Shown here in pieces: positions 2,641 through 45,084 of a stretch of DNA of 50,790 nucleotides (within the stretch, counting starts at the first letter, position 1; every line of letters begins with the position of its first letter). The stretch spans positions 1-50,790 of IMG/VR virus record IMGVR_UViG_3300017912_000567. One strand, 5' to 3'. Origin of the DNA: a virus. Taxonomy: Duplodnaviria; Caudoviricetes. The notes under the pieces were generated by a model that did no database searches, was not told the DNA's origin, and saw nothing but the letters and a program-made list of their open reading frames with translations. A program made the translations under genes and the position numbers.

Positions 2641-2720
2641 GGAAATTGGTTGTCTGACAGGCTCGTGGTGAGCCTCTTGTGGGTCTACCTATAGTAAACC
2701 CTTAACGAGGTAATGGGGTT

Positions 2721-3182: not shown

Positions 3183-3184
3183 AA

Positions 3185-23466: not shown

Positions 23467-23467
23467 T

Positions 23468-23944: not shown

Positions 23945-23945
23945 C

Positions 23946-30276: not shown

Positions 30277-30479
30277 ACTCAGTTGAAAGCCTTCCCTACA
30301 AAAGATATATGGAAATCTGTATGGGTATGATAGGTATGCAACCCTCTGAGTTTTGGAATTCATCTTTATTTGAAATCCATACAGCTATAAAAGGTTTTAG
30401 AGAATTCCATGCTGCCGAACCTGATGCACCCTTATCAAGAGATGAACTTGATAATCTTATGGAGTTATATCCTGACTAA
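30264..30479 (+). CDS. Tail assembly chaperone GT extension reached by -1 frameshift (not in track)
   Basis: A AAA AAG at 30264-30270. The -1 frame reads GVNSVESLPYKRYMEICMGMIGMQPSEFWNSSLFEI...LSRDELDNLMELYPD* and ends at the tape-measure ATG. Confidence 0.85.
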   Translation, partial: KKGVNSVESLPYKRYMEICMGMIGMQPSEFWNSSLFEIHTAIKGFREFHAAEPDAPLSRDELDNLMELYPD

Positions 30480-32149: not shown

Positions 32150-33011
32150 AATTATAACAATGCCGACTACACCTAACTTCACTAGAAGTAGTTTTAGGTT
32201 GGTACGAACAATAGGACAAACAGTGTCGCCTTTTACTGGTCAAACTAAAACACAAGAGTTTGATGCTGTGTATTGGACAGCAGACGTGTCATTGCCACCT
32301 ATGAAAAGATCAGTAGCTAAAAATTGGCAATCATTTTTATTAGAACTTAAAGGAACAACAAATCATTTTAAGTTTGCTGACCCTGATGCACTTACAAATA
32401 CAGGAACATACAGTACAAACTATCTAGAAGGTGATAAACGTGTAAACAATACAAGTGTCACACTATCTTTTAGTGGTAGTACGATAACAGCAGGTGCATC
32501 TACTTTTGCAAGTGCAAGAGCAGGTGATTTTATACACGTTACTGGTGCTACTAATGATGCAAACAATGGCACACATAAGATAACAACAAAAACTTCTGCA
32601 ACTGTTGTAGTTGTGGATAGCACACTTACTACAGAATCAAATACAGCAAGTTGTAAAGTAAGACAGAACGTCAAGGGTGCAACAGGATTATCCCTTCTCG
32701 CTTCATCTAACGCTGCTAGTGGCACGATTAAGAAAGGGGACTACTTAGGTGTCCTATCTAGTGCAAGTGAGTCAGGAACACCTGCACAATATTTGATGGT
32801 TACAGAAGATGCAACAGCAACATCTGATTCAGGTAAAGATTTTTATGCAGTAAAAACAGAACCAAAGTTAAGATCAGATTTAACTGATGGTAATTATGTA
32901 ATTTTTAATAATCCAAAAGGATTGTTCCGACTTATAGATAATGAGGTGGAATGGTCAGCAGACCGAGCATCAACATACGGAATATCTTTTTCATGTATTG
33001 AGGTTATCTAA
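32142..33011 (+). CDS. Distal tail protein with an internal inserted domain
   Basis: Follows the tape measure gene; SPFTGQ...WTADVSLPPM; GTG start. Confidence 0.7.
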   Translation: MAKIITMPTTPNFTRSSFRLVRTIGQTVSPFTGQTKTQEFDAVYWTADVSLPPMKRSVAKNWQSFLLELKGTTNHFKFADPDALTNTGTYSTNYLEGDKRVNNTSVTLSFSGSTITAGASTFASARAGDFIHVTGATNDANNGTHKITTKTSATVVVVDSTLTTESNTASCKVRQNVKGATGLSLLASSNAASGTIKKGDYLGVLSSASESGTPAQYLMVTEDATATSDSGKDFYAVKTEPKLRSDLTDGNYVIFNNPKGLFRLIDNEVEWSADRASTYGISFSCIEVI

Positions 33012-33659
33012 ATGGCATCAAGAACTGGTATTGACAGTGCCATCACCAACAGGCTTGGTGCAGATCATCAAGAATTATTTTTTGCAATAAAAGCTGAATT
33101 TGATACTAGTGATATTTTGGTTTGGACTGGTAATGATGATCTTGTCATATCAAGTGAAACATACACTGGTGCAGGAACTTTGCTATCTATAAGTGGTGTT
33201 GAAGATGGTAGAGAGTTAAAAAGTTCAGGATTAACAGTTTCGCTTTCAGGCATGGATACCACAGTTCTTAATTATGCACTGACAGAAAACTATCAAAACA
33301 GATTCTTAACATTATTTATGGGATACCTCATGGGTGGCTCTAATGAAGTTGCAGGTACTATTGTGTTGTTCAAAGGTCGCATGACAACTCTTACTATTAA
33401 TGATGATCCACAAGGCTCAATGATTACGATTGATGCAGAAAACAGATTGATAGATTTAGATAGACCATGCAATTTAAGATACACAAAAGAAAGCCAAGAG
33501 TTTTTATATACAGGTGACACTGGTTTAGACAGAATCAATCAAATTCAGGATAAAGAGATTGTATGGGGGAGAAAAGCAGGTGGTGGTGGTATTGGTGGTG
33601 GTGGTAGTGGCTCAAGCCAACATGAATTCCAAGATCACTATAGGAATATTGGCAAATGA
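33012..33659 (+). CDS. Minor tail/hub protein
   Basis: WTG...YTGAG, FKGRM, RYTKESQ...GDTG...IVWG. Confidence 0.75.
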   Translation: MASRTGIDSAITNRLGADHQELFFAIKAEFDTSDILVWTGNDDLVISSETYTGAGTLLSISGVEDGRELKSSGLTVSLSGMDTTVLNYALTENYQNRFLTLFMGYLMGGSNEVAGTIVLFKGRMTTLTINDDPQGSMITIDAENRLIDLDRPCNLRYTKESQEFLYTGDTGLDRINQIQDKEIVWGRKAGGGGIGGGGSGSSQHEFQDHYRNIGK

Positions 33660-34072
33660 AGAAAAAAGAAGATTGGATTGATATATTCTTTGAGTTTGTT
33701 AGAGAGAACAAAGATAAACCTTTTGAATGGGGTAAGTGGGATTGTTGTATTTTTGCTAATGCCTGTATTAAAGCTATGACAGGACAAAACCTTATACCTA
33801 GCACATTAAAATGGAAGAACGAAGAAACTGCAATGAAAGCTATTCAAGAATATGGCAAAACACTTAATGGTGCAGTCACAAAAGCCTGTAAAGTAAAAAA
33901 ACTACAAACAATAAAACCTATGTTTATCACTACAGGTGATCTAGTAATATTCAAAGAAGAATCAGAGTTGGTAGGTATATCAGACGGTTTTAACATTTTA
34001 GCACCAAGTGAAGATGGTATAGAGTTCAAATCACACGATCTAATAATCAAAGGTTGGCGAATTAATGGCTAA
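33656..34072 (+). CDS. NlpC/P60-like tail-associated protein
   Basis: PFEWGKWDCCIFA...MTG, GDLV. Confidence 0.8.
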   Translation: MKKKEDWIDIFFEFVRENKDKPFEWGKWDCCIFANACIKAMTGQNLIPSTLKWKNEETAMKAIQEYGKTLNGAVTKACKVKKLQTIKPMFITTGDLVIFKEESELVGISDGFNILAPSEDGIEFKSHDLIIKGWRING

Positions 34073-36851
34073 AGCAGTCAAGGCAGCAATAGTTGCAGCA
34101 GTCATAGTTTTTACTGCAGGTGCAGCTACAGTTGGATTTGCAGCAGGTGGTATGGGTGCTTTGACTTTTGGTACAGGTCTTGGTTTAACAGCAACAGGTA
34201 TGGCAGTTGCAACCTTTGTAACTACATTAGTAAGTGCAGGTATTGGTATGCTTACAAGCAAAGGTATCAATGCAAGTGGTGGTAACTTTGGTACAAAGTT
34301 TGCTTCACGTGCATCTTCTGCACCAAGACAAATTGTGTATGGCAAATGCCGAATAGGTGGAACGATTATGCACGTAGAAACTACAGGCACAGATAATCAC
34401 TTATTACATTTAGTTATTGCAGTTGCAGGTCATGAAGTAGAAGATATTGAAACAATAAGGCTTAATGATACAGATTTAACTTCTACAACAGCTACAGTAA
34501 ACAGCATCACAGTAAACGAAGTAACAACACCTGCATATGTGAATACAGAAAATGACAATGCTTTCACTTCAGGAAGATTAATTAGATTTACAAAAAGACT
34601 TGGTACAGCAGATCAATCCGTTGATCCTTTTTTAAATGATCAACTTGTAAGTATTGGTACATCTGACAGATTTAGAAATATTGCTTATGTATATATACAA
34701 ATGGTATTTGATGCAGAAAAGTTTGGTGGGGGGATGCCTGCCTTTAGTTTTGTAGTAAAGGGTAAAAAGGTTTTTGACCCAAGAAACAATCAAACAGTTT
34801 GGTCTACAAATCCTGCATTAATAATAAGAGATTATCTAACAGACACAGTTTATGGATTAAAAGCTACCAGTACAGAGATCAACGACTCTACAAGTGCAGG
34901 GGGTTTTGCAAGTGCAGCTAATATATGCGATCAGACTGTTACTTTAAGTGATGGTAGTTCTACAGAAACAAGATATACAGCAAATGGTTTTACAAACATG
35001 GCTGCAAATGGTGAGGGTATTCTTGAAGCATTGCTTTCAAGCTGTGCAGGAAAAATGTCATATACCAATGGTAAATTTAATATGTTTGCAGGTGCAGCAC
35101 AGACACCAAGTTTGACGATTACAGATGATGACTTGCTACAAGCTATACAGGTTGCGACAAAACCACAAGGTGGTGAAATTTACAACACAGTAAAAGGTAT
35201 CTATGTTGATGAGAGTAATGATTATGTTGGTACTGAATCACCTGTATATCAAGATTCAACATTCCTAAGTGCAGACACACCGACAAGTGAATCAAGTGCA
35301 AACTATGTAAGAACACTAGAAGTACAGTTTCCATTCACAACAAGTGAGTCAATGGCACAAAGATTACAGAGAATTACACTCAATGCTAACCGACAAACAG
35401 TACAAATATCATTGCTTACCACTACAAAGTTTATGCGATTACAACCTAATGATTGGGTTTATGTAACCAATGAAAGGCTTGGATATACCAACAAAGTATT
35501 TGAAGTTGTTAGTATGAACCTAGAAGTATTAAGTTCAGATGTGCCAGTGGTAGGTACAAGGTTGGTTTTGAAAGAAGCATCCTCAAGTGTATTTACTTTT
35601 GCATCAGGTAATTATGAAACACCAGTAGCAGAAGGTTCTGCTGTTAGCACAGGAACATACGCTATATCTGCACCAAGTGGCTTGTCTGCAAGTGTTACAA
35701 CAAACAACAGTTTTAGTATTAATACCAAGAATGTTGCTCTGACGTGGACTAACAATGCCAATCAGGTAGTTAATGGTACAGAAATACAATACAAACTAAG
35801 CACTGATTCAACCTATATTGATGCAGCAATAGTTGCAAGAGATATTACCAAATATACAATCATAGGTCTTGAGGTTGGCAAGACTTACAACATTCGCATA
35901 CGTCATATTAGTACCTTCAATACTTATTCTGCATATGCAACAGTCAACGCATCAACAGGGGGTACTGCATATACAGCATTAGAAGATGGTGCAACTGTTG
36001 GTGCAAAACTAGGCACAAACCTTAAAGATAGTTCTAACAATACACTTGGTGACAGTGATGTAATAACCAATCAAGGCACTGCACAGAATATAACCAATCA
36101 GGGTAACTTAGCTACTCTTGACAGTGTGAATACAGCACAGCTTGTTGATGATGCGATTACTAATGCAAAGATTGCTGTGAATGCCATACAAGGTGATGTC
36201 CTTGCTGCAGGTGCTATAACAGAAAACAAGTTGGCTACAAATGCTGTGACTGCTGATAAAATAAGTTCAAACAGTATCACATCGGCTAAGATTGCTGCAA
36301 ATGCGATCACTGCTGCCAAGATAGCTGCAGGAACTATTACAGCAACAGAGATTGCTTCAAACACTATTACTTCATCACAAATAAATGTGGGTACTCTTGC
36401 TGTACAACATTTTGATGACGTAAGTGCAGATATTAAAAGTCATTTAACAACTGAAACATTTGTACCGTTAGAAGTCTTTGGTAGTGTATTTCAAAGAGGT
36501 TCTACAGACTTCACGACAAACACTAATAGCACAGGAACATATCTTTCTTTGAACATAGGACAGGTGCGTGACGGTGCAAAATACAGAGCAATATGGTCAG
36601 GTGTTTACGGTGATTGCACAGGTGGTGTTTTAGAATATAGTCTTGATAACTCAACTTTTGTACAAGCTGCAGGTGGCATACAAAACGTACAATTTGATGC
36701 AGGAACATTTAGAACTTATGTTTTTGTATACAACGGAACAATATCAGGTCTTACTGGTACAACATCTAATGTCTATTGGAGAGTAAGATGGACAACAAAA
36801 TTAAACTCAACCTATCAATCTTTATACGTATTTATAGATAACACGCAATGA
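34065..36851 (+). CDS. Tail tip / host-specificity protein (gpJ-like) with FN3 domain
   Basis: PRQIVYG, VKGKKVFDPR, NPALIIRDYL, FN3 (LTW...GLEVGKTYNIRIR), NAITAAKIAA repeats. Confidence 0.88.
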   Translation: MAKAVKAAIVAAVIVFTAGAATVGFAAGGMGALTFGTGLGLTATGMAVATFVTTLVSAGIGMLTSKGINASGGNFGTKFASRASSAPRQIVYGKCRIGGTIMHVETTGTDNHLLHLVIAVAGHEVEDIETIRLNDTDLTSTTATVNSITVNEVTTPAYVNTENDNAFTSGRLIRFTKRLGTADQSVDPFLNDQLVSIGTSDRFRNIAYVYIQMVFDAEKFGGGMPAFSFVVKGKKVFDPRNNQTVWSTNPALIIRDYLTDTVYGLKATSTEINDSTSAGGFASAANICDQTVTLSDGSSTETRYTANGFTNMAANGEGILEALLSSCAGKMSYTNGKFNMFAGAAQTPSLTITDDDLLQAIQVATKPQGGEIYNTVKGIYVDESNDYVGTESPVYQDSTFLSADTPTSESSANYVRTLEVQFPFTTSESMAQRLQRITLNANRQTVQISLLTTTKFMRLQPNDWVYVTNERLGYTNKVFEVVSMNLEVLSSDVPVVGTRLVLKEASSSVFTFASGNYETPVAEGSAVSTGTYAISAPSGLSASVTTNNSFSINTKNVALTWTNNANQVVNGTEIQYKLSTDSTYIDAAIVARDITKYTIIGLEVGKTYNIRIRHISTFNTYSAYATVNASTGGTAYTALEDGATVGAKLGTNLKDSSNNTLGDSDVITNQGTAQNITNQGNLATLDSVNTAQLVDDAITNAKIAVNAIQGDVLAAGAITENKLATNAVTADKISSNSITSAKIAANAITAAKIAAGTITATEIASNTITSSQINVGTLAVQHFDDVSADIKSHLTTETFVPLEVFGSVFQRGSTDFTTNTNSTGTYLSLNIGQVRDGAKYRAIWSGVYGDCTGGVLEYSLDNSTFVQAAGGIQNVQFDAGTFRTYVFVYNGTISGLTGTTSNVYWRVRWTTKLNSTYQSLYVFIDNTQ

Positions 36852-37216
36852 CAGACTTTACTACTTATAAAACTGCAACAGGAGAAATCACTTCTTGTGG
36901 TAGTACAAATGTTGCACTAAACGACATTGCCACATTAACAGGCGAATCAGTTATTAAAGGCATTTATGAAGCAGAAAAGTATAAAATTATTGATGGTTCT
37001 GCTGTAGAGCAAACGATTGATTGGAAGAAAAGTTTACGTACACAAAGAAATGTACTACTAGCAGAGTCAGATTGGACACAAATGTCAGATAGTCCACTTA
37101 CTGATTCTAAAAAAACAGAATGGGCAACATATAGACAAACATTAAGAGATTTACCTGCACAGTACAGTGATAGTGATACTATGGCAGATGTTACATTTCC
37201 TACAGAGCCTAGCTAA
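36848..37216 (+). CDS. Tail fibre assembly chaperone-like protein
   Basis: RNVLLAESDWTQMSDSPL...WATYRQTLRDLP. Confidence 0.85.
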   Translation: MTDFTTYKTATGEITSCGSTNVALNDIATLTGESVIKGIYEAEKYKIIDGSAVEQTIDWKKSLRTQRNVLLAESDWTQMSDSPLTDSKKTEWATYRQTLRDLPAQYSDSDTMADVTFPTEPS

Positions 37217-37566
37217 TGGATAGTTTTATTCAAATAATAAACGAGGTTGGTTTTCCAATAGCCACTGCACTTGGTCTTGGTTTCTTCATATGGAAACTTA
37301 TTAACAGAATTATTGATGGCATGGAACAAAAGCTAGATACCCTTGATGACAAACAAGCTGAACTTATAGCAAACATGGAAGAAAGGCTAGGTACAAAACT
37401 TGATTCACAACATGGTATCTTAGTTGCATTAATAGATAGAGTACGTAGCTTAGACAATGAGATAATAAGACAAGATACGTTAATTAAAACTATATTAGGT
37501 GTGCCACAACTTATTGATAGTGGCAAAATTGCAAAAGCAGATAGAGATGATCAAAGGAAAGATTAA
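37216..37566 (+). CDS. Single-TM coiled-coil membrane protein (holin-like)
   Basis: VGFPIATALGLGFFIW followed by a coiled coil and a charged C-terminus. Confidence 0.6.
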   Translation: MDSFIQIINEVGFPIATALGLGFFIWKLINRIIDGMEQKLDTLDDKQAELIANMEERLGTKLDSQHGILVALIDRVRSLDNEIIRQDTLIKTILGVPQLIDSGKIAKADRDDQRKD

Positions 37567-37655
37567 TGTTTGAATTATTAATAGACTTTTTTTGTATACT
37601 TTTAGCTACAGGCATACTAATGTCTATAGTTGATGATATAAGTAGATGGTGGTAA
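37566..37655 (+). CDS. 29-aa hydrophobic peptide (not in track)
   Basis: MFELLIDFFCILLATGILMSIVDDISRWW exactly fills the gap (TAATG coupling; stop abuts the next TTG). Confidence 0.5.
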   Translation: MFELLIDFFCILLATGILMSIVDDISRWW

Positions 37656-38123
37656 TTGGATTCGTTTACTAGATTACTTTTAGCAATAGTTACAGCATGG
37701 TCAGTTATGATAGCTGTAGGTCTGTATGTCAGTGCAGACGAGATGACACATAACTTTAAAAACCCAAGTTTTTCAGGTGTTGGTACTTCTGCACATTGGC
37801 TAACTATAGAAAACCAAGAAGCCAACAGAAAGAAAGCACTCAAAGACGAGATTAAGGCTTACCAAGAGGATTTAGAAAGGGAAGCAGAAAATACAACATT
37901 AGCTAGATTTATACGAAACTTAGAAAGTAGAATATATGCACAGCTATCAAGACAATTAGTTGACAACCTGTTTGGTGAAACACCTAGTGAATCAGGTACG
38001 CTAGAGCTAGAAGGCAATACAATAGAATATTCTGTTGATGGTGATTTCATAACTTTGACAATTACAGATGCAGACGGAAATGTTACAGAGATTACTTTGC
38101 CTATCGGTGATTTTTCTTTCTAG
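37656..38123 (+). CDS. csgF: Curli assembly component CsgF-like
   Basis: Signal peptide, then ADEMTHNFKNPSFSG (cf. CsgF F.NP.F.G), and FIRNLESRIYAQLSRQL. Confidence 0.85.
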   Translation: MDSFTRLLLAIVTAWSVMIAVGLYVSADEMTHNFKNPSFSGVGTSAHWLTIENQEANRKKALKDEIKAYQEDLEREAENTTLARFIRNLESRIYAQLSRQLVDNLFGETPSESGTLELEGNTIEYSVDGDFITLTITDADGNVTEITLPIGDFSF

Positions 38124-38904
38124 TTGCACAAACTGGTCAGTACTTAACAACTATCAATTACCTGTAAGCCTAGTAAAACAAGCAGAAGTTGGTGTACTAA
38201 TCAACAAAGAACTTGCTAATATTGGTAAGCCATTCATAAAACCAACTATTGCAGTCTATCCAAACAGCTTTACAGATCAAACAGGACAACGTAGAAGCAA
38301 CAGCACATATGCTTCATTCTCTACAGCTATAACACAAGCACCTAACGCATACCTTATACGTGCCTTAAAACACGCAGGGGAAGGACATTTTTTTGATGTC
38401 GTAGAACGTGTTGGGCTTGATAACTTAACAAAAGAACGACAACTGATAAGGTCTACACGCAAAGACTTTAAAGAAGATAAAGATTTACTACCTCTAACTT
38501 TTGCAGGTTTGTTGATGGAAGGGGGTGTGATAGGATATGAAAGCAACGTCAAATCAGGTGGTTTGGGTGCAAGGTATCTAGGGATAGGTACTACAAAAGA
38601 ATATAGACAGGATTCTGTTACTGTTTCTTTACGCACCGTGTCAGTTAGCACAGGCAAAGTCTTGACCGAAGTGCTTACCACAAAGACGATTCTTAGTGTT
38701 GCATTAAGTCAAGATGCTTTTAGGTTTATCTCTAGTGGCACAGAGTTAGTAGAGATAGAAAATGGCATGGTTGAAAATGAGTCTGTAAACATAGCCTTAC
38801 AAAGTGCAGTAGAAACTGCTGTATTGGAAACCATAAAACTAGGTGTGAAAAATAATTTATGGAGTATACCTGATGAAGAAATGCTTAATGCTATTCGTGG
38901 TTAG
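38080..38904 (+). CDS. csgG: Curli secretion channel CsgG-like lipoprotein
   Basis: Lipobox LSSC, AVY..FTDQTGQR, FSTAITQ, FDVVERVGLDNLTKERQLIR, EGGVIGYESN..SGGLGARYLGIG. Confidence 0.92.
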   Translation: MLQRLLCLSVIFLSSCTNWSVLNNYQLPVSLVKQAEVGVLINKELANIGKPFIKPTIAVYPNSFTDQTGQRRSNSTYASFSTAITQAPNAYLIRALKHAGEGHFFDVVERVGLDNLTKERQLIRSTRKDFKEDKDLLPLTFAGLLMEGGVIGYESNVKSGGLGARYLGIGTTKEYRQDSVTVSLRTVSVSTGKVLTEVLTTKTILSVALSQDAFRFISSGTELVEIENGMVENESVNIALQSAVETAVLETIKLGVKNNLWSIPDEEMLNAIRG

Positions 38905-39574
38905 TGGATTTTTATTTGCTGATAACGAAGTTTATGTAGATCAAGTCGGTGCAACATTAAACCTTGATATAGAACAACTTGGCTCTAACAACATAATTGG
39001 TGGTGCTGATGCTGTTGCAGGTGGTATGACTGCATTAGACTTAGATGGTACAACAATGACACTAGACGTTAACCAAATTGGTGATAGTAACAAGTTTCTT
39101 GGTGATATTACTGCTGATACTTTTACTGGTTTCTTTGAATTTGATGGCGATTCTAACGTCTTTGATATACAAGTTGACCCAACCAATACTTATGGTGCAG
39201 ATAGTGGTAACTTTAATGTTGATGTAACTGGGGGTAGTAATACCTTTGAATTAAATGTCGCAACTGTTGATCTTGCAGGTACGCTTGATCTTGATTGGAT
39301 AATACAAGGTGATTCAAATGATCTTACATTCAATATTGACTATGATGGTGCAACCAATTATGTTGATATAGATGGAGATTCAAACACAGTTAATTTTGAT
39401 GCAGATGGATATTCAGGTGGATATTTCTATTTGGATCAGACAGGTAATTCTAGAACATTTAACATAGATCAACAGAGTACCCTTGCTAGTGATTGGCTAC
39501 AAATTAATTCTAGTGGCAACAATGGCACTATTTGTGTCAAACAAAACGATGGGGGAACAAGTACCTCGTGCTGA
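38873..39574 (+). CDS. Secreted curlin-repeat-like (beta-solenoid) protein
   Basis: Signal peptide; repeated [Q/D]xGxSN units (QLGSNN, QIGDSN, FDGDSN, QGDSN, DGDSN, QTGNS); terminal Cys pair. Confidence 0.7.
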   Translation: MKKCLMLFVVSGFLFADNEVYVDQVGATLNLDIEQLGSNNIIGGADAVAGGMTALDLDGTTMTLDVNQIGDSNKFLGDITADTFTGFFEFDGDSNVFDIQVDPTNTYGADSGNFNVDVTGGSNTFELNVATVDLAGTLDLDWIIQGDSNDLTFNIDYDGATNYVDIDGDSNTVNFDADGYSGGYFYLDQTGNSRTFNIDQQSTLASDWLQINSSGNNGTICVKQNDGGTSTSC

Positions 39575-40598
39575 CGTAGGTAATGTATCTGAACTCAATG
39601 GTGTTGCTCGTATTGTACGAGATCAACCAGTAGAAGCATCGTTAGAAGCCAATATAAAGAGCTATGACACGTTAGAAACGTCTAATGGTCGTATGGGTAT
39701 CACTTTCTTAGATGATACGCAGATAAGGCTCACAGAGCATTCTCAGGTCTTGGTAGATGAGTTTGTTTTTGACCCAAACCCTGATAATTCCAAGATGGCA
39801 CTTAATTTTGCCAAAGGCACTGCACGTTTTGTTACAGGTAAACTAGGTCTAGTACCTAAGAAAAACATAAAGATACGCACCAACAGTGCGACAATCGGTA
39901 TCAGGGGTACTGATTTTACAATCACAGTAAATGAGATTGGTGAATCATTAATCATTCTTTTGCCTAACCTTGATGGCACAAGCAGTGGTGAAATAGAAGT
40001 AACAACAGCTATGGGTACAGTTTTACTTAACAAGCCTTACGAATCTACAGTTACCACAGTCTTTGAAGCACCCCCAAGCAATCCAGTCATATTAGATTTA
40101 ACACTAGATATCATAGACAATATGCTTATTGTCAATCCACCTGAACGTGTAAGAGAAACCATAGAAGAAACCACGTCATCATCAAGCAATGTCTTAGATG
40201 TAGATTTCTTAGAGTTTGATGAACTTGATGCAGACTACTTTGCCAAAGATGAATTAGAGTTTACAGAATTAGATATCAACTACCTTGATGTCAATTTCTT
40301 TGAGGATTTGCTAAAGGTAATAGACGAATTAGATAAGTTAGCAGAAGATGATCTTGAACAAGAACAACAAATAACAAGGATTGTTGGTACAAAAGTAGGG
40401 CAAGACCCAACGACACAGATCATTACCTTAGTACAAGGGGAAGTTATTAGCTTACGCAGAAAAGTTGAACAATCAGTACAAGTTGATTTAAACTCTAGTC
40501 AGGGATACACAGTTATATTTATACAAGACGGTGTATCAAATACAATTAAGATTAATGGTGGTGGCGACTCAGTAATAAAAATTACACAAGGCTCATGA
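39483..40598 (+). CDS. FecR-domain protein
   Basis: DTLETSNGRMGITFLDDTQIRLTEHSQVLVDEFVFDP, GTARFVTG, TNSATIGIRGTDF; acidic C-terminal region. Start uncertain. Confidence 0.85.
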   Translation: MLVIGYKLILVATMALFVSNKTMGEQVPRADVGNVSELNGVARIVRDQPVEASLEANIKSYDTLETSNGRMGITFLDDTQIRLTEHSQVLVDEFVFDPNPDNSKMALNFAKGTARFVTGKLGLVPKKNIKIRTNSATIGIRGTDFTITVNEIGESLIILLPNLDGTSSGEIEVTTAMGTVLLNKPYESTVTTVFEAPPSNPVILDLTLDIIDNMLIVNPPERVRETIEETTSSSSNVLDVDFLEFDELDADYFAKDELEFTELDINYLDVNFFEDLLKVIDELDKLAEDDLEQEQQITRIVGTKVGQDPTTQIITLVQGEVISLRRKVEQSVQVDLNSSQGYTVIFIQDGVSNTIKINGGGDSVIKITQGS

Positions 40599-40975
40599 AA
40601 CTAAACTTTATAATTATAGCAATGTCAGTAACCTTATTAGGGGGTAGTTGGGCTTATATTAAATGGCTACAGTCAGAAAATGAAACCCTAAGAACAAACC
40701 AAGCAAAGCTAGAACAATCAATAGCAGACCAAAACGAGAGTATAAAAAATTATCTTGCCAATCAAAAACGTCAGACAGAGCAGATAACATTACTTGAAAC
40801 CCAACGCCAAGAAGCACAGAGAGAATTAAGTAAACTAAGAGATACATTCGCCAAACATGATATAGGAAAGTTGGCATTAGCAAAACCAAAGCTAATAGAA
40901 AACATAGTCAACAAAGGTACAAAAAAAGTCAAAGACGATATGATAGAACTAACTAAACCTGAACAATATGATTAA
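40595..40975 (+). CDS. Inner-membrane spanin (Rz-like)
   Basis: N-terminal TM followed by a long coiled coil; overlaps a lipoprotein gene. Confidence 0.7.
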   Translation: MKLNFIIIAMSVTLLGGSWAYIKWLQSENETLRTNQAKLEQSIADQNESIKNYLANQKRQTEQITLLETQRQEAQRELSKLRDTFAKHDIGKLALAKPKLIENIVNKGTKKVKDDMIELTKPEQYD

Positions 40976-41351
40976 ATATGTAGTACCAGTTTTATTTCTT
41001 GCTTTAACAGGTTGCTCCCTAATACCAAGCCAATCAAAACCTGTTGAAGTTAGAACCATTGCTGAACCTGCTCCAATGTATCATCCACCTATGCCGATGG
41101 AGTTACAACTTCGTGATATAGAGTGGACAATCCTTACTCCTCAAATTATGGATTCTCTGGTTAAAGACATTGAAGACGGTTCAGCAATACCTACTGCATA
41201 CTATGCTTTGACATCACAAGGCTATCAAAACCTTTCAGAAAACACTGCAGAAAACAAAAGATACATCAGAGATGTCATTGCAATAGTCAAATATTATCGG
41301 TCTTTAGACGATAAAGACGAAGAAAAAGAAACTAGACAAGAAGAAAAGTAG
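40968..41351 (+). CDS. Outer-membrane spanin-like lipoprotein
   Basis: Lipobox LTGC, Pro-rich segment. Confidence 0.7.
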   Translation: MIKYVVPVLFLALTGCSLIPSQSKPVEVRTIAEPAPMYHPPMPMELQLRDIEWTILTPQIMDSLVKDIEDGSAIPTAYYALTSQGYQNLSENTAENKRYIRDVIAIVKYYRSLDDKDEEKETRQEEK

Positions 41352-41391
41352 AAGATACTATCAAGGATAACTTTTATCTATAGGAGTTATT

Positions 41392-41562
41392 ATGGATATG
41401 ATAATCAATTTAGTAAGCATGATTACTGTGATAGTAACCGTTGCTTCTATCATTGCTGCTGTCACTCCAACACCGAAAGACGATGAATGGATTGGCAAGT
41501 TATATAAACTTGTTGATCTTGCAGCGTGTAACTGGGGTTTTGCAAAGGACAAAAGCAAATAA
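41392..41562 (+). CDS. Small membrane protein, holin-like (56 aa; not in track)
   Basis: MDMIINLVSMITVIVTVASIIAAVTPTPKDDEWIGKLYKLVDLAACNWGFAKDKSK; AGGAG RBS. Confidence 0.75.
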   Translation: MDMIINLVSMITVIVTVASIIAAVTPTPKDDEWIGKLYKLVDLAACNWGFAKDKSK

Positions 41563-41586
41563 GATTAGTGCATTAGCACACTTACT

Positions 41587-41967
41587 ATGACTGACTCAGT
41601 AATTCCATTTGTATACGAAGCTGAACTGGACAGGGTTGTTGATGGCGATACCATTGATGTAATCCTTGATCTTGGCTTTAATGTTAAGTTGCACAAACAA
41701 AGGTGCAGATTAGCAGGTATAGATACTCCTGAATCTCGTACAAGGGATTTAGAAGAAAAGAAACTAGGCTTGGCAGCCAAAGCAAGACTGCAGGAGTTAT
41801 GTCATGGTAAATTCAAAATCCAATCGCTAGGTAAAGGAAAGTATGGCAGAATATTAGCAATACCTTTTACAGAAGATGGTCAAAATATTTGCGAAATACT
41901 TAAAAAAGAAGGTCACGCAGTTGAATACTGGGGTGGCAAGAAAACCAAAATTTGGGGGGGATACTAA
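41587..41967 (+). CDS. Thermonuclease (SNase-like)
   Basis: RVVDGDTIDV, RLAGIDTPE, KYGRILA. Confidence 0.92.
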   Translation: MTDSVIPFVYEAELDRVVDGDTIDVILDLGFNVKLHKQRCRLAGIDTPESRTRDLEEKKLGLAAKARLQELCHGKFKIQSLGKGKYGRILAIPFTEDGQNICEILKKEGHAVEYWGGKKTKIWGGY

Positions 41968-41968
41968 T

Positions 41969-42412
41969 ATGGTTATATCAGACGAAGGTGTTGCCTTAGT
42001 AAAGAAGTTTGAAGGTTGCAAATTAGAAGCCTATCAATGTGCAGCAGGTGTATGGACTATTGGTTATGGTTCAACTAAAGGTGTACAGAAAGGTGATGTA
42101 TGGTCACAAACAAAAGCAGAAATGATGCTAGAAGAAGAATTATACGACTTTGCACAACAAGTAGATGAGTTAGTAACTGTACCACTTAACCAGTGTCAAA
42201 CCGATGCACTTATCTCTTGGACATTTAATCTTGGTGCTACAAATCTATCACGTAGTACTTTGCTCAAAGTTTTGAATAGTGGTGCATATGAAGATGTACC
42301 TGCACAGATTAAAAGATGGAATAAAGCTAATGGTAAAGTTTTAGAGGGATTAGTTCGCAGAAGAGAAGCAGAAGCCTTGTTGTTTGAAGGTAAGGAATGG
42401 GAACACGTCTAA
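41969..42412 (+). CDS. Endolysin, GH24 lysozyme
   Basis: FEGCKLEAYQCAAGVWTIGYG, FNLG, GLVRRREAE. Confidence 0.95.
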   Translation: MVISDEGVALVKKFEGCKLEAYQCAAGVWTIGYGSTKGVQKGDVWSQTKAEMMLEEELYDFAQQVDELVTVPLNQCQTDALISWTFNLGATNLSRSTLLKVLNSGAYEDVPAQIKRWNKANGKVLEGLVRRREAEALLFEGKEWEHV

Positions 42413-42639
42413 TGGCATTGTCCAAAACACAGAACAAAAGATTGGGTGGCATACTTACAGTAATGTTTAAGGAAGAACTGCCACAAGAAGTAGAACAACA
42501 ATTAGTACAAGAGGGGTTTGTAGAAAAAAATGATTCTGATATTCAACTCACAGATAAAGGAATTGATGAAAAGAACAGACTATGCACCCTTGCAGGACTT
42601 AATATCAAGTATTCAAGCGAGAGAAAAAAAGAGGACTGA
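42412..42639 (+). CDS. Hypothetical protein (winged-helix-like)
   Basis: Coupled to the lysozyme gene; LVQEGFV...LTDKG. Confidence 0.6.
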   Translation: MALSKTQNKRLGGILTVMFKEELPQEVEQQLVQEGFVEKNDSDIQLTDKGIDEKNRLCTLAGLNIKYSSERKKED

Positions 42640-42797
42640 TGTACCTAATGTCGCAATGTCAAAACTGCGAGAACAAGAAATTAGATTGTACATGTGCAGG
42701 AAGCAAAGGTCTGTTTTGGGAAGAAACAACCAAGAAGTTTTACACTTGGATAGAACTAAAAGAATTCTATAAAAAAAAGGCTAAGAATAAATCCTAG
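42639..42797 (+). CDS. Small Cys-rich protein (52 aa; not in track)
   Basis: MYLMSQCQNCENKKLDCTCAGSKGLFWEETTKKFYTWIELKEFYKKKAKNKS; TGATG coupling. Confidence 0.55.
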   Translation: MYLMSQCQNCENKKLDCTCAGSKGLFWEETTKKFYTWIELKEFYKKKAKNKS

Positions 42798-42801
42798 CCT
42801 T
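42771..42801 (-). terminator. Terminator at the convergence of late and early transcription
   Basis: AAGGCTAAGA-ataaa-TCCTAGCCTT, with an A-run on the left (U-run on minus). Confidence 0.65.
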
Positions 42802-42821
42802 AGAGAAAGTTTTAGTTATTA

Positions 42822-43067
42822 CTAAAACTTAAACTTACGAGAAAGGTGGTTTAGGTTTCCACCTCTAGAATTAATTTCTTCTACATCCCAAAGTTTAATC
42901 TCTAGATTAACTCCATTCTCGGCAAGTTTTTTGAAATCAACTCCACTATCGGTAAGTTTTTTCTTGGTTAGTTGAATTGCTTGAGATTCGCTGACAGCAT
43001 ATTTGTTATCAACGAATGCTCTTACATCAACTATCCAGTTTTCCTTCCTACATCTTCTTTTAGCCAT
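42822..43067 (-). CDS. Hypothetical protein
   Basis: GGGAG RBS; own promoter TTGAAT-16-TATAAT with TG extension (43094-43121). Confidence 0.7.
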   Translation of the reverse strand: MAKRRCRKENWIVDVRAFVDNKYAVSESQAIQLTKKKLTDSGVDFKKLAENGVNLEIKLWDVEEINSRGGNLNHLSRKFKF

Positions 43068-43151
43068 TTTTACTCCCATTTGGTTAAAGGTTTATTATAA
43101 CAAACGTGATGTAGAATTCAAGTCATGTGACATTTGCAGTTTTTTACGTGC

Positions 43152-43179
43152 AAAAAAAAGGGAGGTCTGAAACCTCCCT
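43152..43179 (-). terminator. Rho-independent terminator (minus strand)
   Basis: AGGGAGGT-ctgaa-ACCTCCCT preceded by an A-run on plus. Confidence 0.8.
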
Positions 43180-43211
43180 GATGGTGATAAATCACCTGCC
43201 CAAGTATGAAA

Positions 43212-43403
43212 CTACAGTATATCAGTTTTTACTTTCTTTGTTTCTTTTCTACCTGATAAATATACGTTTTGTGTAAACTCAATACGCTTACCATTCTCTA
43301 ACCTTGACTCAAAGTAATGATACTTCAACATATTGTCTAACTCTTCATCAGATAGTTCTTGCTTTCTAACTTCTAGTAGCGATCTTGTGTACGGATATGC
43401 CAT
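43212..43403 (-). CDS. Hypothetical protein
   Basis: 63-aa ORF in the leftward operon. Confidence 0.6.
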   Translation of the reverse strand: MAYPYTRSLLEVRKQELSDEELDNMLKYHYFESRLENGKRIEFTQNVYLSGRKETKKVKTDIL

Positions 43404-43563
43404 CTTCTTCTCCTAGCACTCTAATCTTGGTGCTGTAATATGGTTTTATTGTTTCTTTTCCAAGACGTGATTTTGCTTCTTCTAGTGCATCATCATGTTC
43501 TTTGGCTTCAACTACATACGTAGTTGTTTTGCTTTCAGTAATAGTAACTTGAAAGACTTTCAT
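43366..43563 (-). CDS. Hypothetical protein
   Basis: MKVFQVTITE...VEA...ALEEA; start reassigned to ATG 43563. Confidence 0.65.
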   Translation of the reverse strand: MKVFQVTITESKTTTYVVEAKEHDDALEEAKSRLGKETIKPYYSTKIRVLGEEDGISVHKIATRS

Positions 43564-43700
43564 CTTGTCCACTTGCACTTAATAATATCTTCTTTGATAT
43601 TTTGTTCTGTATCTCTCCAAGAATTGGCTAGTACAATAAATATTCCTAAAACATTTGCTAATAGAAATACAGCAATGCCTAAAAGTAAAATATTAATCAT
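43560..43700 (-). CDS. Small single-TM protein (46 aa; not in track)
   Basis: MINILLLGIAVFLLANVLGIFIVLANSWRD...; ATGA overlaps at both ends. Confidence 0.6.
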   Translation of the reverse strand: MINILLLGIAVFLLANVLGIFIVLANSWRDTEQNIKEDIIKCKWTR

Positions 43701-43891
43701 AAACCCCTCTCTTTAAAATATAAGTTTATTAGTTTTTCTACTCTAGGATTTATCTTGGCATAACCATTCTCAAATCTAGATATCATACTTTTGTTTGGCA
43801 CATCACCATTCATGTATCCAAGAAACTCTGCAAGTTCTGTTTGCTTTACATTGTTTTCTTCTCTTAGTTTTTTAAGTTCAATACCTTCCAT
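43697..43891 (-). CDS. XRE-family HTH regulator
   Basis: LKKLREENNVKQTELAEFLG...SMISRFENG; GAGGT RBS. Confidence 0.88.
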   Translation of the reverse strand: MEGIELKKLREENNVKQTELAEFLGYMNGDVPNKSMISRFENGYAKINPRVEKLINLYFKERGL

Positions 43892-44057
43892 CTTTACCTC
43901 TCTGTTTTGCAACCGTAGTAATATAACTACCAGTATCATCACGTAATACCCAAAAGCCTATATGCTCACTGCTTTCTTGTTTACTAGGATAATTATAAGG
44001 CAAGTCATTATCTCTTTGTTTATGTTGATAAATTCTTACTGCATCTGTATACGTCAT
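43878..44057 (-). CDS. Hypothetical protein (59 aa; not in track)
   Basis: MTYTDAVRIYQHKQRDNDLPYNYPSKQESSEHIGFWVLRDD...; AGGAG RBS. Confidence 0.55.
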   Translation of the reverse strand: MTYTDAVRIYQHKQRDNDLPYNYPSKQESSEHIGFWVLRDDTGSYITTVAKQRGKDGRY

Positions 44058-44058
44058 A

Positions 44059-45084
44059 TTATTTTACTCCTGTATTTATGTCGTAATCTTTTGTGATAAT
44101 CCCTTTGGATTTATCACCCCTAAAATGTGCTTTTACAAAAGTGATCTTGCCACTGTTGCATTTCCTGATATGTTTTCTAACAGCATGAAACGCTTTACCA
44201 TCCTGACCGTTAGATACACCTGAGGGTTCATTATTGGAACCATTATCAAACAGATTTAGTTTTAGTACCTTGTGTTCATATTTAGGCTTACGTAAAAACT
44301 CTGCATGGCTAAATTTTCTTGATAGTGGTGTCTGTATATTCTTGATACCTTTTACAGATTTTGTATCTACAATCTGTGGGTATGATAAGTAAAGGCATAG
44401 TTGTGTATGTGTATGTACTATTGTGCCTACTATAGAGTTCAGGGTTACATTGGAATATGTTTCATTATTACTAATGGTTCTTAGATCAGTGGCATCATAA
44501 AAAGGACTATCTTCATGTAGCCAAAAAGTATAATCACCATTTTTTCTAAAAGAATATATCCACACATTTGGGTCAATAACAAAGATGTTACTTTGTGTGT
44601 CATACAACCAAATTGTACCTGCAAACATTCTGCTACCTTCCTCATCATGTTTACCTGTATCAATTAATAAAACATGGCTAAGTGCTTTGTGACGATCTAT
44701 AGTTTCAATATTGTGTTGTCGTTCCCATGTTGGTAAATCCACAGTACCGTCATAATTCCTATAGAGTTCATTGGTATCAGTAAAGTTAATACTTGATTCA
44801 ACCTGTACAAATGTTGATTTAAACGGTAAGTACATTTCTAAATCTTCAGTCAGTTTTGCAAGTTCAGTGTGGCTCAATTCATTTTCTTCACTTGCTATTG
44901 GCAAATAAAACTTCATGGATTGTTGTACCTGTTTAGATGTTTTGTCTAAATAATCTGAAAATATTGCAGTGTCAACTGGTCTGACAATATGTGGTGCAGG
45001 TTTGAAATTTTGTAAAAACTTTTCAGGGTTAGTTCTGTTAAGAACACCTGCATGTAATAATTTTTGTAATATAGTGTTGTTCAT
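44059..45084 (-). CDS. Hypothetical early protein
   Basis: C-terminal HAVRKHIRK...VKAHFRG motif; GAGAGG RBS; own promoter. Confidence 0.75.
   Translation of the reverse strand: MNNTILQKLLHAGVLNRTNPEKFLQNFKPAPHIVRPVDTAIFSDYLDKTSKQVQQSMKFYLPIASEENELSHTELAKLTEDLEMYLPFKSTFVQVESSINFTDTNELYRNYDGTVDLPTWERQHNIETIDRHKALSHVLLIDTGKHDEEGSRMFAGTIWLYDTQSNIFVIDPNVWIYSFRKNGDYTFWLHEDSPFYDATDLRTISNNETYSNVTLNSIVGTIVHTHTQLCLYLSYPQIVDTKSVKGIKNIQTPLSRKFSHAEFLRKPKYEHKVLKLNLFDNGSNNEPSGVSNGQDGKAFHAVRKHIRKCNSGKITFVKAHFRGDKSKGIITKDYDINTGVK

Follow-up and report, generated by a model that had tools for sequence, protein, structure and literature searches.

A curli-type secretion gene module directly upstream of the lysis genes in a marine siphovirus genome

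Curli-type gene sets are already known from several groups of ocean phages. The viral curli region was first noted in PMC7029224, and passages of PMC7029224, PMC9004378 and PMC9599517 report the set seen here, either including a CHASE2 cyclase or lacking one, in pelagimyophages, Melnitz and HTVC023P-type podoviruses. According to passages of PMC9599517, the HTVC023P-type podoviruses and pelagimyophages encode a pore, a candidate substrate, FecR, small TM proteins termed 'HK' and an adenylate cyclase. The records of HTVC008M (KC465899) and Melnitz (MZ577098) are annotated with a curli-type set, and a sequence-only reading of the DNA studied here correctly noted csgF and csgG in SAR11 and OM43 myophages. 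The same reading overstated the novelty of the combination, as a pore, substrate and FecR set is in print in passages of PMC9599517, though its claim of an undescribed siphovirus context stands in that no such context was found in a literature search. The two functions that it proposed, amyloid export and assistance to lysis, are those already debated in the literature.

The window analysed here is the whole 50,790-bp record IMGVR_UViG_3300017912_000567, a complete genome with direct terminal repeats. Its tail genes include matches to Phage_tail_2, GTA-gp10 TAC, tape measure and Phage-tail_3, with no match to a tail sheath among the scanned proteins, and the record is that of an uncultured marine siphovirus whose head is of the HK97 type and whose non-contractile tail genes are GTA-like. 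The features from the end of the tail genes to the lysis cassette are as follows.

36848..37216, + strand: tail fibre assembly chaperone, the final tail gene (PF16778 Phage_tail_APC, E 7e-19; phrog_4912, tail fiber assembly)
37216..37566, + strand: 116-aa single-TM coiled-coil protein (phrog_18771, E 2.6e-17)
37566..37655, + strand: ORF for a 29-aa hydrophobic peptide, in a conserved position just upstream of csgF
37656..38123, + strand: CsgF-like protein with signal peptide (PF10614, E 2.3e-19)
38068..38904, + strand: CsgG-like outer-membrane lipoprotein (PF03783, E 1.8e-49)
38873..39574, + strand: 233-aa secreted D/N/G/T-rich repeat protein (beta-solenoid model; no Pfam match)
39483..40598, + strand: 371-aa secreted FecR-domain protein (PF04773, E 8.5e-11; phrog_37870, E 1.2e-71, full length)
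40595..40975, + strand: i-spanin, Rz-like, with N-terminal TM and coiled coil (phrog_739, E 1.4e-14)
40968..41351, + strand: o-spanin, Rz1-like lipoprotein with lipobox LTGC (phrog_812, E 4.2e-13)
41392..41562, + strand: 56-aa TM protein, candidate holin (phrog_9685, unknown function, E 4e-11)
41587..41967, + strand: staphylococcal-nuclease-like protein within the lysis cassette (PF00565, E 4.6e-11; phrog_452, endonuclease, E 8e-36)
41876..42412, + strand: endolysin, a phage lysozyme (PF00959, E 4.4e-48; phrog_7, endolysin), its start probably being the ATG at 41969

The module genes and their order are those of the HTVC023P-type pelagipodoviruses and pelagimyophages as given in passages of PMC9599517 (small TM protein(s) 'HK', CsgF, CsgG, CsgA/B-like repeat protein, FecR), and CsgE is absent in both. 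The present genome differs in its siphovirus backbone (HK97 head, GTA-like tail), in lacking an adenylate cyclase and a second repeat protein, and in having an Rz/Rz1 spanin pair fused to the module. Melnitz (PMC9004378; MZ577098) shares the order of CsgF, CsgG, 'curlin associated repeat protein' and 'FecR domain protein' at 30-42% identity, but is a 141-kb T4-like myophage with a cyclase and a second repeat protein, both lacking here, and the neighbours of its module are ssb, thyX and a tmRNA gene, not lysis genes. Bacterial csgBA/csgDEFG systems (PDB identifiers 4uv3 and 6l7a; the canonical csgB-csgA-csgE-csgF-csgG operon of Alishewanella, locus L087, being our comparison reference) likewise combine a CsgG lipoprotein channel with a CsgF that bears NPxFxG in its N-terminal peptide and with a repeat subunit that is Q/N/G-rich and exported by Sec. 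In contrast to these, the phage has no CsgE, separate CsgB or CsgD-type regulator, adds TM proteins and a FecR-domain protein, and encodes the set in a lytic-type phage operon. The main text of PMC9599517 mentions 'Siphoviridae' four times, each time in connection with other genes or within a reference; the words 'lysozyme', 'endolysin' and 'spanin' never occur in it, and the searched passages of PMC7029224, PMC9004378 and PMC9599517 make no mention of a placement upstream of lysis genes. New here are the siphovirus backbone, the cyclase-less variant and the consistent placement directly upstream of lysis genes in sipho- and podo-type genomes.

The ORFs named in the sequence-only reading are all present at their coordinates, and Pfam profile searches bear out the CsgF, CsgG and FecR identities, all well above the cut-offs (for CsgF, 70.3 bits against 25.8). 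The mature N-terminus of CsgF, DEMxHxFKxPSFSG, is invariant among relatives (alignment A4), and the protein matches CsgF of the Alishewanella operon with a BLASTP E of 5e-8, NPSFxG being common to both. Over residues 46-269, CsgG matches the E. coli CsgG structures (3x2r, 4uv3, 6l7a and others; phmmer E 7e-44), and its identity is 62-87% with loci in a podovirus context, for example L033, and 50% with HTVC008M. In its lipobox, FLSSC, S18 and S19 are invariant and C20 is found in at least 90% of alignment A2. Alignment to E. coli CsgG places a Ser at what we take to be the constriction Asn position, with the Tyr shifted. These differences at the presumed constriction count against a fibre, as does the absence from this genome of a Curlin_rpt-type second repeat protein such as that of HTVC008M (E 5e-8).

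The protein that had been read as a curlin-repeat protein has no Pfam match in profile searches, Curlin_rpt included, whereas Alishewanella CsgA itself matches Curlin_rpt with an E of 1.3e-33. Its match to NCBIfam CsgB (E 0.0028) is far below the cut-off, while BLASTP finds Alishewanella CsgA with an E of 3e-7 and 28% identity over 200 aa. A G..N motif occurs in 8 copies, compared with 2.84 +/- 1.47 when the sequence is shuffled 2000 times, a count of 8 being reached in 5 of the shuffles. The AF2 model is all-beta, a beta-solenoid with a pLDDT of 83.4, and VIA-align superimposes it on beta-helices with Z 15-16, such structural matches being generic; that to Pontibacter CsgA (8c50_A) has Z 15.1, an rmsd of 8.8 Å and 18% identity. 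C221 is conserved and C233 nearly invariant (at least 90%). We regard the protein as a distant curlin-like (CsgA-like) beta-solenoid and a candidate fibre subunit. The Curlin_rpt failure and the high rmsd to CsgA are observations against a fibre.

After a signal peptide, the FecR-domain protein has a FecR/PupR-type beta domain (approximately residues 40-195), then an acidic linker and finally a beta region at the C-terminus; its hydrophobic N-terminus is conserved (alignment A3). The domain superimposes on the PupR CCSSD (6ovm_R) with Z 14.0 and an rmsd of 2.4 over 118 aa, the next unrelated match having Z 5.9. It thus resembles the periplasmic beta domain of the FecR/PupR cell-surface-signalling anti-sigma regulators (6ovm) by both HMM and fold, but a cleavable-looking signal peptide replaces their cytoplasmic anti-sigma domain and TM helix, the acidic linker and C-terminal beta region are additions, and the phage genome has no sigma factor. 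Of the 64 related loci whose sequence extends 600 nt or more past FecR, 49 have a CHASE2-cyclase there. Whole-genome searches with Guanylate_cyc, CsgE and Sigma70_r2 drew a blank here, in agreement with the earlier statement that CsgE, an ECF sigma and a cyclase are missing, and the absence of the cyclase from the 50.8-kb genome is a lineage-specific loss. With this partner lost, the FecR-domain protein would act alone or via the pore or substrate. Passages of PMC5192318 describe a biofilm-regulating Burkholderia operon, BiofilmReg, which similarly pairs a FecR-domain protein with a CHASE2 sensor; there the output is a histidine kinase, whereas that of the phage relatives, whose FecR-domain protein is secreted and whose CHASE2 sensor is a membrane protein, is a nucleotide cyclase, and the present genome lacks the CHASE2 partner entirely.

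Such pairing, together with the missing CsgE gate and a fold typical of regulators that engage outer-membrane transporters at their periplasmic signalling domain (the best structural match being PupR in complex), could suggest that the module serves as an outer-membrane pore without a gate, through which molecules from outside are taken up or sensed. The FecR-domain protein would then be the periplasmic receiver and the repeat protein no substrate; uptake is among the ideas found in passages of PMC7029224 and PMC9599517. We consider this improbable: cyclase, sigma factor and any other output domain are absent from the genome, late expression leaves little time for uptake to pay, and CsgF and the repeat protein, neither of which a bare pore needs, are conserved like CsgG.

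The module genes are real, kept as a block and under purifying selection. A CsgG relative is encoded in 182 of 198 candidate IMG/VR stretches, the five core genes occur together in all 48 loci with room for them, and pN is 0.08-0.41 against a pS of 0.56-0.82 for the five genes. CsgF, the repeat protein and FecR each have a signal peptide followed by an invariant mature N-terminus. The order (TM protein(s), small peptide, CsgF, CsgG, repeat protein, FecR-domain protein) is identical in many other, separately assembled IMG/VR contigs (L004, L005 and more), and DNA contigs of run X1, perhaps the source sample, bridge 36800-38114 and 40247-40907, so that the block is not the chimeric insert entertained earlier. 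That the block is an assembly chimera or a decaying, functionless bacterial passenger is very hard to believe. The closest bacterial-labelled matches are indeed two short contigs of one MAG, but both themselves carry phage lysis and module genes, the frames here are all intact, and block GC (0.34-0.38) is like that of the remainder of the genome; this reading is contradicted by the recurrent order, the phage-bearing MAG contigs, pN far below pS and the core in 48/48 loci.

From the J-like tail gene to the o-spanin, junction gaps are -4, -1 (the chaperone stop overlapping the module start), -1, 0, -56, -32, -92 (the 5' end of the FecR-domain gene within the repeat-protein gene), -4 (FecR stop and i-spanin start) and -8 nt, so the run of 37216-41351 into the spanins is gap-free, as had been read from the sequence. 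No + strand terminator-like site was found between 35558 and 43509, which, like the close junctions, supports late co-expression. Contigs assembled from two RNA libraries of one study match CsgF, CsgG, the repeat protein, FecR and both the spanin and the lysis genes with 90-99% identity, a weak hint of late co-expression because such libraries can contain DNA. The siphovirus backbone is common to 21 of 80 related IMG/VR loci, in the sipho-type of which the 56-aa TM gene keeps its place before the SNase and lysozyme genes. Counted loosely, among the 46 related loci whose sequence continues for 1 kb or more beyond the module, 45 have a next gene of one of three kinds (a homologue of the i-spanin in 11, of the small pre-spanin gene in 6 and of a two-TM protein preceding lysozyme in 28). 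Counted strictly, a spanin or lysozyme homologue lies within 3 kb in 22 of the 28 loci with at least 3 kb after it.

The first module gene is represented by a homologue ahead of CsgF in each of the 48 loci that could accommodate the full core, as well as in Melnitz and HTVC008M. Its product, with one N-terminal TM segment and a charged, coiled-coil C-terminus, stands first among the conserved products of the viral T8SS module and probably corresponds to 'HK' in PMC9599517. It is holin-like in topology, and a weak lead from the Atlas points to Holin_BhlA at 0.87; it is a candidate lysis holin at most. The 29-aa peptide is 65.5% identical in L084 (E 8e-10), with weak matches (E 0.03-0.05) directly upstream of CsgF in L020, L031, L009, L006 and L008.

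The holin-like topology of the first module protein, the 4-nt overlap with the spanin genes and the adjacency to lysis genes on two unrelated backbones, siphovirus and HTVC023P-type podovirus, are consistent with a module belonging to the lysis programme, in which the CsgG/CsgF channel, the small holin-like TM proteins and the periplasmic FecR sensor (plus the CHASE2-cyclase where present) would time or assist envelope breakdown, the repeat protein being a plug or by-product and not a fibre. Passages of PMC9004378 suggest a lysis role for the Melnitz curli operon, and we treat this as a live rival to surface display, albeit an unlikely one. As the loci are related, the 45 placements amount to perhaps two or three independent arrangements and not 45 events; 28 of them, the two-TM cases, rest on position, phrog_1544 being of 'unknown' function, and the HTVC008M and Melnitz modules adjoin ssb/replication genes instead. 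The genome is already equipped with the complete conventional complement of small TM protein, lysozyme and the two spanins, i and o, and a lysis role leaves the strong conservation of a Sec-exported beta-solenoid protein unexplained. Moreover, accessory genes, such as lom and bor of lambda, are often found in the interval separating tail-fibre from lysis genes, and an outer-membrane channel, unlike a pinholin, cannot depolarise the inner membrane.

Lysis-gene adjacency fits the lysis programme as well as surface display, and expression only late would leave a fibre little time to matter. Passages of PMC9004378 also bear against a fibre: Melnitz-infected cultures showed no clumping in cytograms or TEM, and models are used to argue that the viral CsgF may have lost its pairing with CsgG. 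Secretion and fibre formation by the viral module are predictions.

On balance, we hypothesize, with moderate confidence, that the block is a virus-encoded type VIII (curli-type) secretion module in the late tail-lysis operon, by which the repeat protein is displayed on the surface shortly before lysis. As CsgG, CsgF, the repeat protein and the FecR-domain protein all carry signal or lipoprotein signal sequences, they would be exported by Sec. Judging from their families, CsgG would form the outer-membrane channel, CsgF would cap it via the conserved N-terminal peptide, and the beta-solenoid repeat protein would leave the cell unfolded and polymerise on its surface, with the FecR-domain protein as a periplasmic accessory, paired with the CHASE2-cyclase sensor in most relatives. 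Coupling of the block to the spanin genes would confine production of the surface structure to the last part of infection; the structure may form a coat on the cell or its debris at about the time of lysis, where, at a guess, it could serve aggregation, receptor masking or exclusion.

The record is rated complete, with a length of 50,790 bp and direct terminal repeats. Its head and packaging genes encode a large terminase, a portal, a protease and an HK97-type capsid protein, and these are accompanied by a gp6-like connector, an HK97 gp10-like protein, a gp17-type tail completion protein, and tail genes for a Phage_tail_2 tube, a GTA-gp10-type chaperone, a tape measure and a Phage-tail_3/J-like protein. 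Given the HK97-type capsid, the GTA-gp10-type chaperone and the lack of any match to a tail sheath family among the window proteins scanned, the label of HK97/GTA-like siphovirus assigned by the sequence-only reading is a fair one. The closest capsid protein of a cultured phage, that of a Rhizobium phage, is 49% identical and none is near, and the best full-portal-domain matches in cultured phages are about 36-42% identical. The replication and recombination genes comprise Erf, SSB, an O-like initiator and a primase-helicase; no integrase was found among the window proteins scanned and no tRNA in the window. Between the head and tail blocks lies an ORF of 2415 aa (14823-22070, + strand) with a C-terminal Peptidase_S74 intramolecular chaperone domain (E 2e-7), which as a fibre would be unusually large in a 50-kb phage, and downstream of it are tail-fibre-like and 'virion structural' genes (22072-26446). 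A left-end cluster (906-4329) encoding PAPS-reductase-like (phrog_2302), gamma-glutamyl cyclotransferase (phrog_2520) and amidoligase (phrog_2443) proteins may serve to modify nucleotides or DNA.

All ORFs called in the sequence-only reading are present where it placed them, and those in and just after the module with family assignments are as follows.

37656-38123, + strand, CsgF (PF10614, E 2.3e-19)
38068-38904, + strand, CsgG (PF03783, E 1.8e-49)
39483-40598, + strand, FecR-domain protein (PF04773, E 8.5e-11)
40595-40975 and 40968-41351, + strand, spanin pair of the Rz/Rz1 type (phrog_739, phrog_812)
41587-41967, + strand, SNase homologue (profile search)
41876-42412, + strand, phage lysozyme (profile search)

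The spanin pair consists of a coiled-coil protein with an N-terminal TM segment followed by the gene of a small lipoprotein (lipobox LTGC), the two overlapping by 8 nt. The 116-aa TM product at the start of the module (37216-37566) has only Pfam matches below cut-off and falls in a PHROG family of unknown function; Holin_BhlA and YvrJ, considered for it, were set aside as leads below the better-than-chance level of the tool. The 233-aa repeat protein (38873-39574) has neither a Pfam nor a PHROG match, and the 56-aa product (41392-41562) has no Pfam match and belongs to a PHROG family of unknown function. For the 29-aa ORF there is a clear counterpart in one related contig (L084; 65.5% identity, E 8e-10) and weak counterparts, each just upstream of csgF, in five further loci. 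Between consecutive genes, starting at the J-like tail gene and finishing at the o-spanin, the junctions measure -4, -1, -1, 0, -56, -32, -92, -4 and -8 nt, and no terminator-like site is present on the + strand within 35558-43509. Because of these overlapping or abutting junctions and the lack of such a site, the block looks, at the level of sequence, like a segment of a single late transcription unit extending from the tail genes across the lysis genes. Strong terminator-like hairpins in 30000-44500 are limited to 42801 and 43179 (- strand), where the rightward late genes and the leftward genes meet. Matches to sigma-70-like promoters in the same interval number 20, far fewer than the 54.8 +/- 6.8 of shuffled sequences.

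The match of CsgG to the whole-domain profile of PF03783 covers residues 56-267 with 168.4 bits, well past the cut-off of 20.8, and residues 46-269 align with the solved E. coli CsgG (E 7e-44). Its lipoprotein signal ends in VIFLSSC (residues 14-20), where S18 and S19 do not vary across 12 relatives and C20 is kept in at least 90%. At the constriction loop, whose residues in E. coli CsgG we take to be Tyr, Asn and Phe, the viral protein keeps the Phe, has Ser at the Asn position and has a Tyr two residues away from that of E. coli. HfaB, the holdfast anchor of Caulobacter, was rejected as an identity for this protein with 16.1 bits against a cut-off of 300. CsgF likewise exceeds its cut-off, matching positions 10-132 of the 132 in PF10614 with 70.3 bits (cut-off 25.8). 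A variable signal peptide is followed by DEMxHxFKxPSFSG..S.HYLTIENQ, invariant in 16 relatives, and this N-terminal block aligns with CsgF of the Alishewanella csgB-csgA-csgE-csgF-csgG operon (E 5e-8), with NPSFxG in common. A phmmer search of the PDB found no CsgF chain, and the family assignment rests on the Pfam match and the Alishewanella comparison. In E. coli the N-terminal block of CsgF sits in the CsgG barrel (PDB identifiers 6l7a and 6si7). The accessible part of PMC9004378 doubts the pairing of CsgF with CsgG in the Methylophilales myophage Melnitz and suggests that viral CsgF has drifted from CsgG; judged from the alignments, the conservation of the CsgF N-terminus argues against such a drift.

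The third secreted component had been read as a curlin-repeat protein, and this part of the sequence-only reading fails on the profile: the protein has no match to Curlin_rpt (PF07012) at E <= 0.1, the whole window genome has none, and NCBIfam CsgB scores only 17.4 bits against it (cut-off 165). It does have the features of a curlin subunit, namely a Sec signal, tandem Q/N/G-rich strand-turn-strand repeats, a β-solenoid model and a gene adjoining csgG and csgF. The signal peptide is followed by a conserved mature end (ADNE...), the G..N motif occurs in 8 copies against 2.8 expected with a spacing of 20-33 residues, and of the C-terminal cysteines C221 is invariant and C233 is present in at least 90% of alignment rows. 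The model, built with 22 aligned relatives, is an all-β solenoid (pLDDT 83.4). Foldseek found nothing in the PDB at E <= 0.001, and the β-helix matches come from the wide VIA structural search only, where generic β-helices reach Z 15-16 and Pontibacter CsgA (PDB identifier 8c50_A) ranks fifth with a Z of 15.1, the top identity (18%) and an RMSD of 8.8 Å. In BLASTP the repeat protein matches the Alishewanella CsgA (E 3e-7, 28% identity over 200 residues), which itself matches Curlin_rpt (E 1.3e-33). Since the BLASTP match to CsgA and the β-solenoid model stand against the failed Curlin_rpt profile, we describe the repeat protein as curlin-like in its modelled architecture and outside the Pfam family, and it is probably curlin-like by descent as well. 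The pelagimyophage HTVC008M (KC465899) encodes a second repeat protein (8423-9748 of locus L002) with a PA14 domain (E 2.7e-6) and true Curlin_rpt repeats (E 5.2e-8), which has no counterpart after FecR in the window; in related loci, a cyclase or lysis-cassette gene begins right after FecR.

The FecR domain is also clearly over its cut-off (PF04773, 42.6 bits against 24). The model of the protein is confident only at about residues 40-190 (mean pLDDT 49.3), and the modelled domain superimposes on the periplasmic signalling domain of PupR (PDB identifier 6ovm_R) with a Z of 14.0 and an RMSD of 2.4 Å over 118 residues; 4m0h follows with a Z of 13.2 and the next row is far lower at 5.9. Thus, the protein shares the periplasmic domain of FecR-type anti-sigma regulators but lacks their anti-sigma part: ahead of the FecR domain there are about 25 hydrophobic N-terminal residues, with neither a cytoplasmic anti-sigma domain nor a TM helix. 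A genome-wide search of the window for Sigma70_r2 was empty, in agreement with the absence of an ECF sigma factor from the sequence-only reading. Because both the cytoplasmic part and a genomic sigma factor are absent, this is a secreted FecR-fold protein and no anti-sigma factor. Its hydrophobic N-terminus is conserved among relatives, evidence for the upstream TTG as start codon and for an overlap of 92 nt with the gene of the repeat protein (39483-39574). An overlap of about 86-92 nt, in different frames, between the 3' end of the repeat gene and the 5' end coding for the FecR signal peptide is kept in relatives (for example, 86 nt at 11419-11504 of L009, a cyclase-bearing locus). QxGxxN-like motifs occur in the C-terminus of the FecR-domain protein; a profile-profile comparison of the repeat-protein and FecR-protein families is not significant (probability 3%, E 0.014).

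That the window lacks a cyclase partner and CsgE had been noted before and holds: Guanylate_cyc has no match anywhere in the genome, and tblastn with the L009 cyclase finds nothing in the window. Among the best 80 relatives, a protein with CHASE2 and Guanylate_cyc domains follows FecR in 49 of the 64 loci that have at least 600 nt there, and the loci without it include the window, L004, L005, L020 and several of podovirus type. This shows that a cyclase-less variant recurs, in which the FecR-domain protein is kept without its cyclase partner; intact though the cyclase output is gone, this protein must also have a cyclase-independent task. FecR-CHASE2 pairs are described in a bacterial biofilm-regulating operon in the accessible text of PMC5192318.

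As far as the accessible text of PMC9599517 goes, the window shares with its viral T8SS module the order of small TM protein(s), CsgF, CsgG, repeat protein and FecR, and differs in lacking both the downstream adenylate cyclase and the second repeat protein, which are frequent but not universal there. From the bacterial csgBA-csgDEFG arrangement it differs in having no CsgE and a repeat protein that fails the curlin profile, and hence it is not a canonical operon; the same part of PMC9599517 notes that CsgE is also missing from alphaproteobacterial curli systems. By gene content, the window module belongs with the published viral T8SS module and is not a new kind of system. The earlier claim that a set of pore, substrate and FecR had gone unreported in a siphovirus thus stands in part: the set itself is published, while a siphoviral T8SS was not found described in the open-access main texts searched. 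With the module also in siphoviruses, all three tail types carry the viral T8SS.

In the phage collection CsgG matches only seven records, viz., four Melnitz strains, two copies of HTVC008M and one unannotated 1.5-kb record labelled as a Salmonella phage. HTVC008M and Melnitz have two small genes, CsgF, CsgG, a 'curlin-associated' protein, FecR, a second repeat protein and an adenylate/guanylate cyclase in that order. In IMG/VR a CsgG relative is encoded in 182 of 198 candidate stretches, and the best 80 relatives (62-99% identity) were taken for locus comparisons. All 48 loci with room for them have the TM protein, CsgF, CsgG, the repeat protein and FecR in order, which bears out the expected synteny, and across these five core genes non-synonymous differences are far rarer (pN 0.08-0.41 against pS 0.56-0.82), the ratios being rough because synonymous sites are near saturation. 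Beside this conservation, the chance that the module is an artefact, be it a chimera or a decaying passenger, is close to negligible. A scan of species genomes returned no close cellular homologue of the module; of its six matches, four lie in ordinary curli operons (36-44% identity) and the two close ones in phage-type contigs of one MAG. These two short contigs, L084 and L085, from a Maricaulis-labelled MAG, carry the module with phage lysis genes; they probably represent viral sequence placed in a bacterial bin and offer no evidence of the host.

A J-like protein or tail-fibre chaperone like that of the window lies upstream of the module in 21 of the 80 loci, several of which, contigs of about 44-49 kb included, also have its tape measure and distal tail genes; these shared genes mark them as siphoviruses of the window's kind. 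In the second large group SNase lies upstream of the module and a two-TM protein and lysozyme lie downstream, with terminase and portal after the lysozyme in the longer loci. In one of these (L033) the terminase and portal are about 65-67% identical in nucleotides to those of the Pelagibacter phages HTVC023P and HTVC027P and of phage 023Pt_psg01, and by this gene content the group are HTVC023P-type podoviruses, in which the accessible part of PMC9599517 describes the T8SS module. A CsgG tree, made by a quick method with SH-aLRT support only and establishing neither root nor direction of transfer, resolves the siphovirus-context copies into three or more supported clusters that nest within the podovirus-type copies, and sets both myophages apart. 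On the tree, this nesting points to repeated exchange of the module between siphovirus and podovirus backbones. One locus (L024) has a podovirus-type terminase and portal, yet a siphovirus-type spanin-SNase-lysozyme cassette after the module, a mixture from which the lysis cassette and the module appear to travel together between backbones.

The module is closely linked to lysis genes on both backbones. Within 400 nt after the module (that is, after FecR, or after the cyclase where one exists), the next gene in 45 of the 46 loci with at least 1 kb there is a homologue of the i-spanin gene of the window (11 loci), of the small pre-spanin gene of L009 (6) or of the two-TM protein that precedes lysozyme in L033 (28), L055 being the sole exception; by a stricter count, 22 of the 28 loci with at least 3 kb there (not L039, L040, L044, L045, L055 and L065) have a homologue of the window's spanin or lysozyme within 3 kb, and because the loci are related, these counts perhaps represent two or three arrangements and not dozens of events. 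The PHROG that includes the two-TM protein has no assigned function, and in 24 loci lysozyme follows this protein within 1 kb. In the myophages the module adjoins replication genes. An SNase-like gene accompanies the lysis genes and module in both types, downstream of the spanins in the siphovirus type (window 41587-41967) and upstream of the module in the podovirus type (L033 6447-6878). The words lysozyme, endolysin and spanin are absent from the main text of PMC9599517, and the lysis role argued for Melnitz in the accessible part of PMC9004378 draws on much weaker synteny (thyX, ssrA); the placement in two backbones is therefore a modest new observation. It bears on two readings that would tie the module to lysis itself. 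That the module acts directly in lysis timing or in breaking down the envelope appears unlikely. We consider it less likely still that the module is a lysis-coupled envelope device and not a biofilm fibre, in which the CsgG/CsgF channel would pass an outside or periplasmic cue to the FecR-domain protein, setting the moment of lysis with the holin-like TM proteins, with or without the CHASE2-cyclase, the cassette having moved with the lysis genes between siphoviruses and podoviruses.

Near-identical sequence occurs in seawater or marine metagenome runs from 12 studies. Contigs from two RNA libraries of one study match CsgF, CsgG, the repeat protein and FecR at 90-99% identity and, at the same identity, the spanins, the small TM gene, SNase and lysozyme; they leave 36800-37563 and some other bins without cover. 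Being contigs from libraries that DNA may contaminate, they are a hint of transcription only. Viral curli genes are expressed in Pacific metatranscriptomes, and viral curli-type modules are present at all 65 stations surveyed, according to the accessible part of PMC9599517, and in a preprint csgG tops the 'virulence factor' genes of seawater phages in abundance.

Signal sequences are present on CsgG, CsgF, the repeat protein and the FecR-domain protein. By analogy with E. coli curli, we think it somewhat probable that the module is a type VIII secretion system for late-expressed surface export of the repeat protein. CsgG would form the outer-membrane channel, the conserved CsgF N-terminus would line it, and the unfolded repeat protein would cross it and stack into a solenoid fibre. 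For the FecR-domain protein the periplasm is the most plausible site of action, and its usual CHASE2-cyclase neighbour suggests a role in sensing. A module amounting to a bare uptake or sensing pore is very unlikely. With the secretion system expressed late together with the lysis genes, any surface structure would arise shortly before the cell bursts. The benefit is guesswork, and ideas from or akin to those in the accessible parts of PMC7029224 and PMC9599517 include aggregation or 'sibling capture', masking of debris or receptors, and exclusion.

Three points are new here: the module sits on a siphovirus backbone, a cyclase-less variant recurs, and on two backbones the module is tightly coupled to lysis genes. 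The gene set is very common in ocean viruses, and its arrangement in the window sharpens one functional hypothesis without testing it. Were the lysis-coupled device true, it would represent a novel form of lysis-timing or lysis-inhibition control. The direct adjacency of the module and lysis genes in siphovirus and podovirus backbones gives the published, weakly supported idea of a lysis role a concrete and testable footing.
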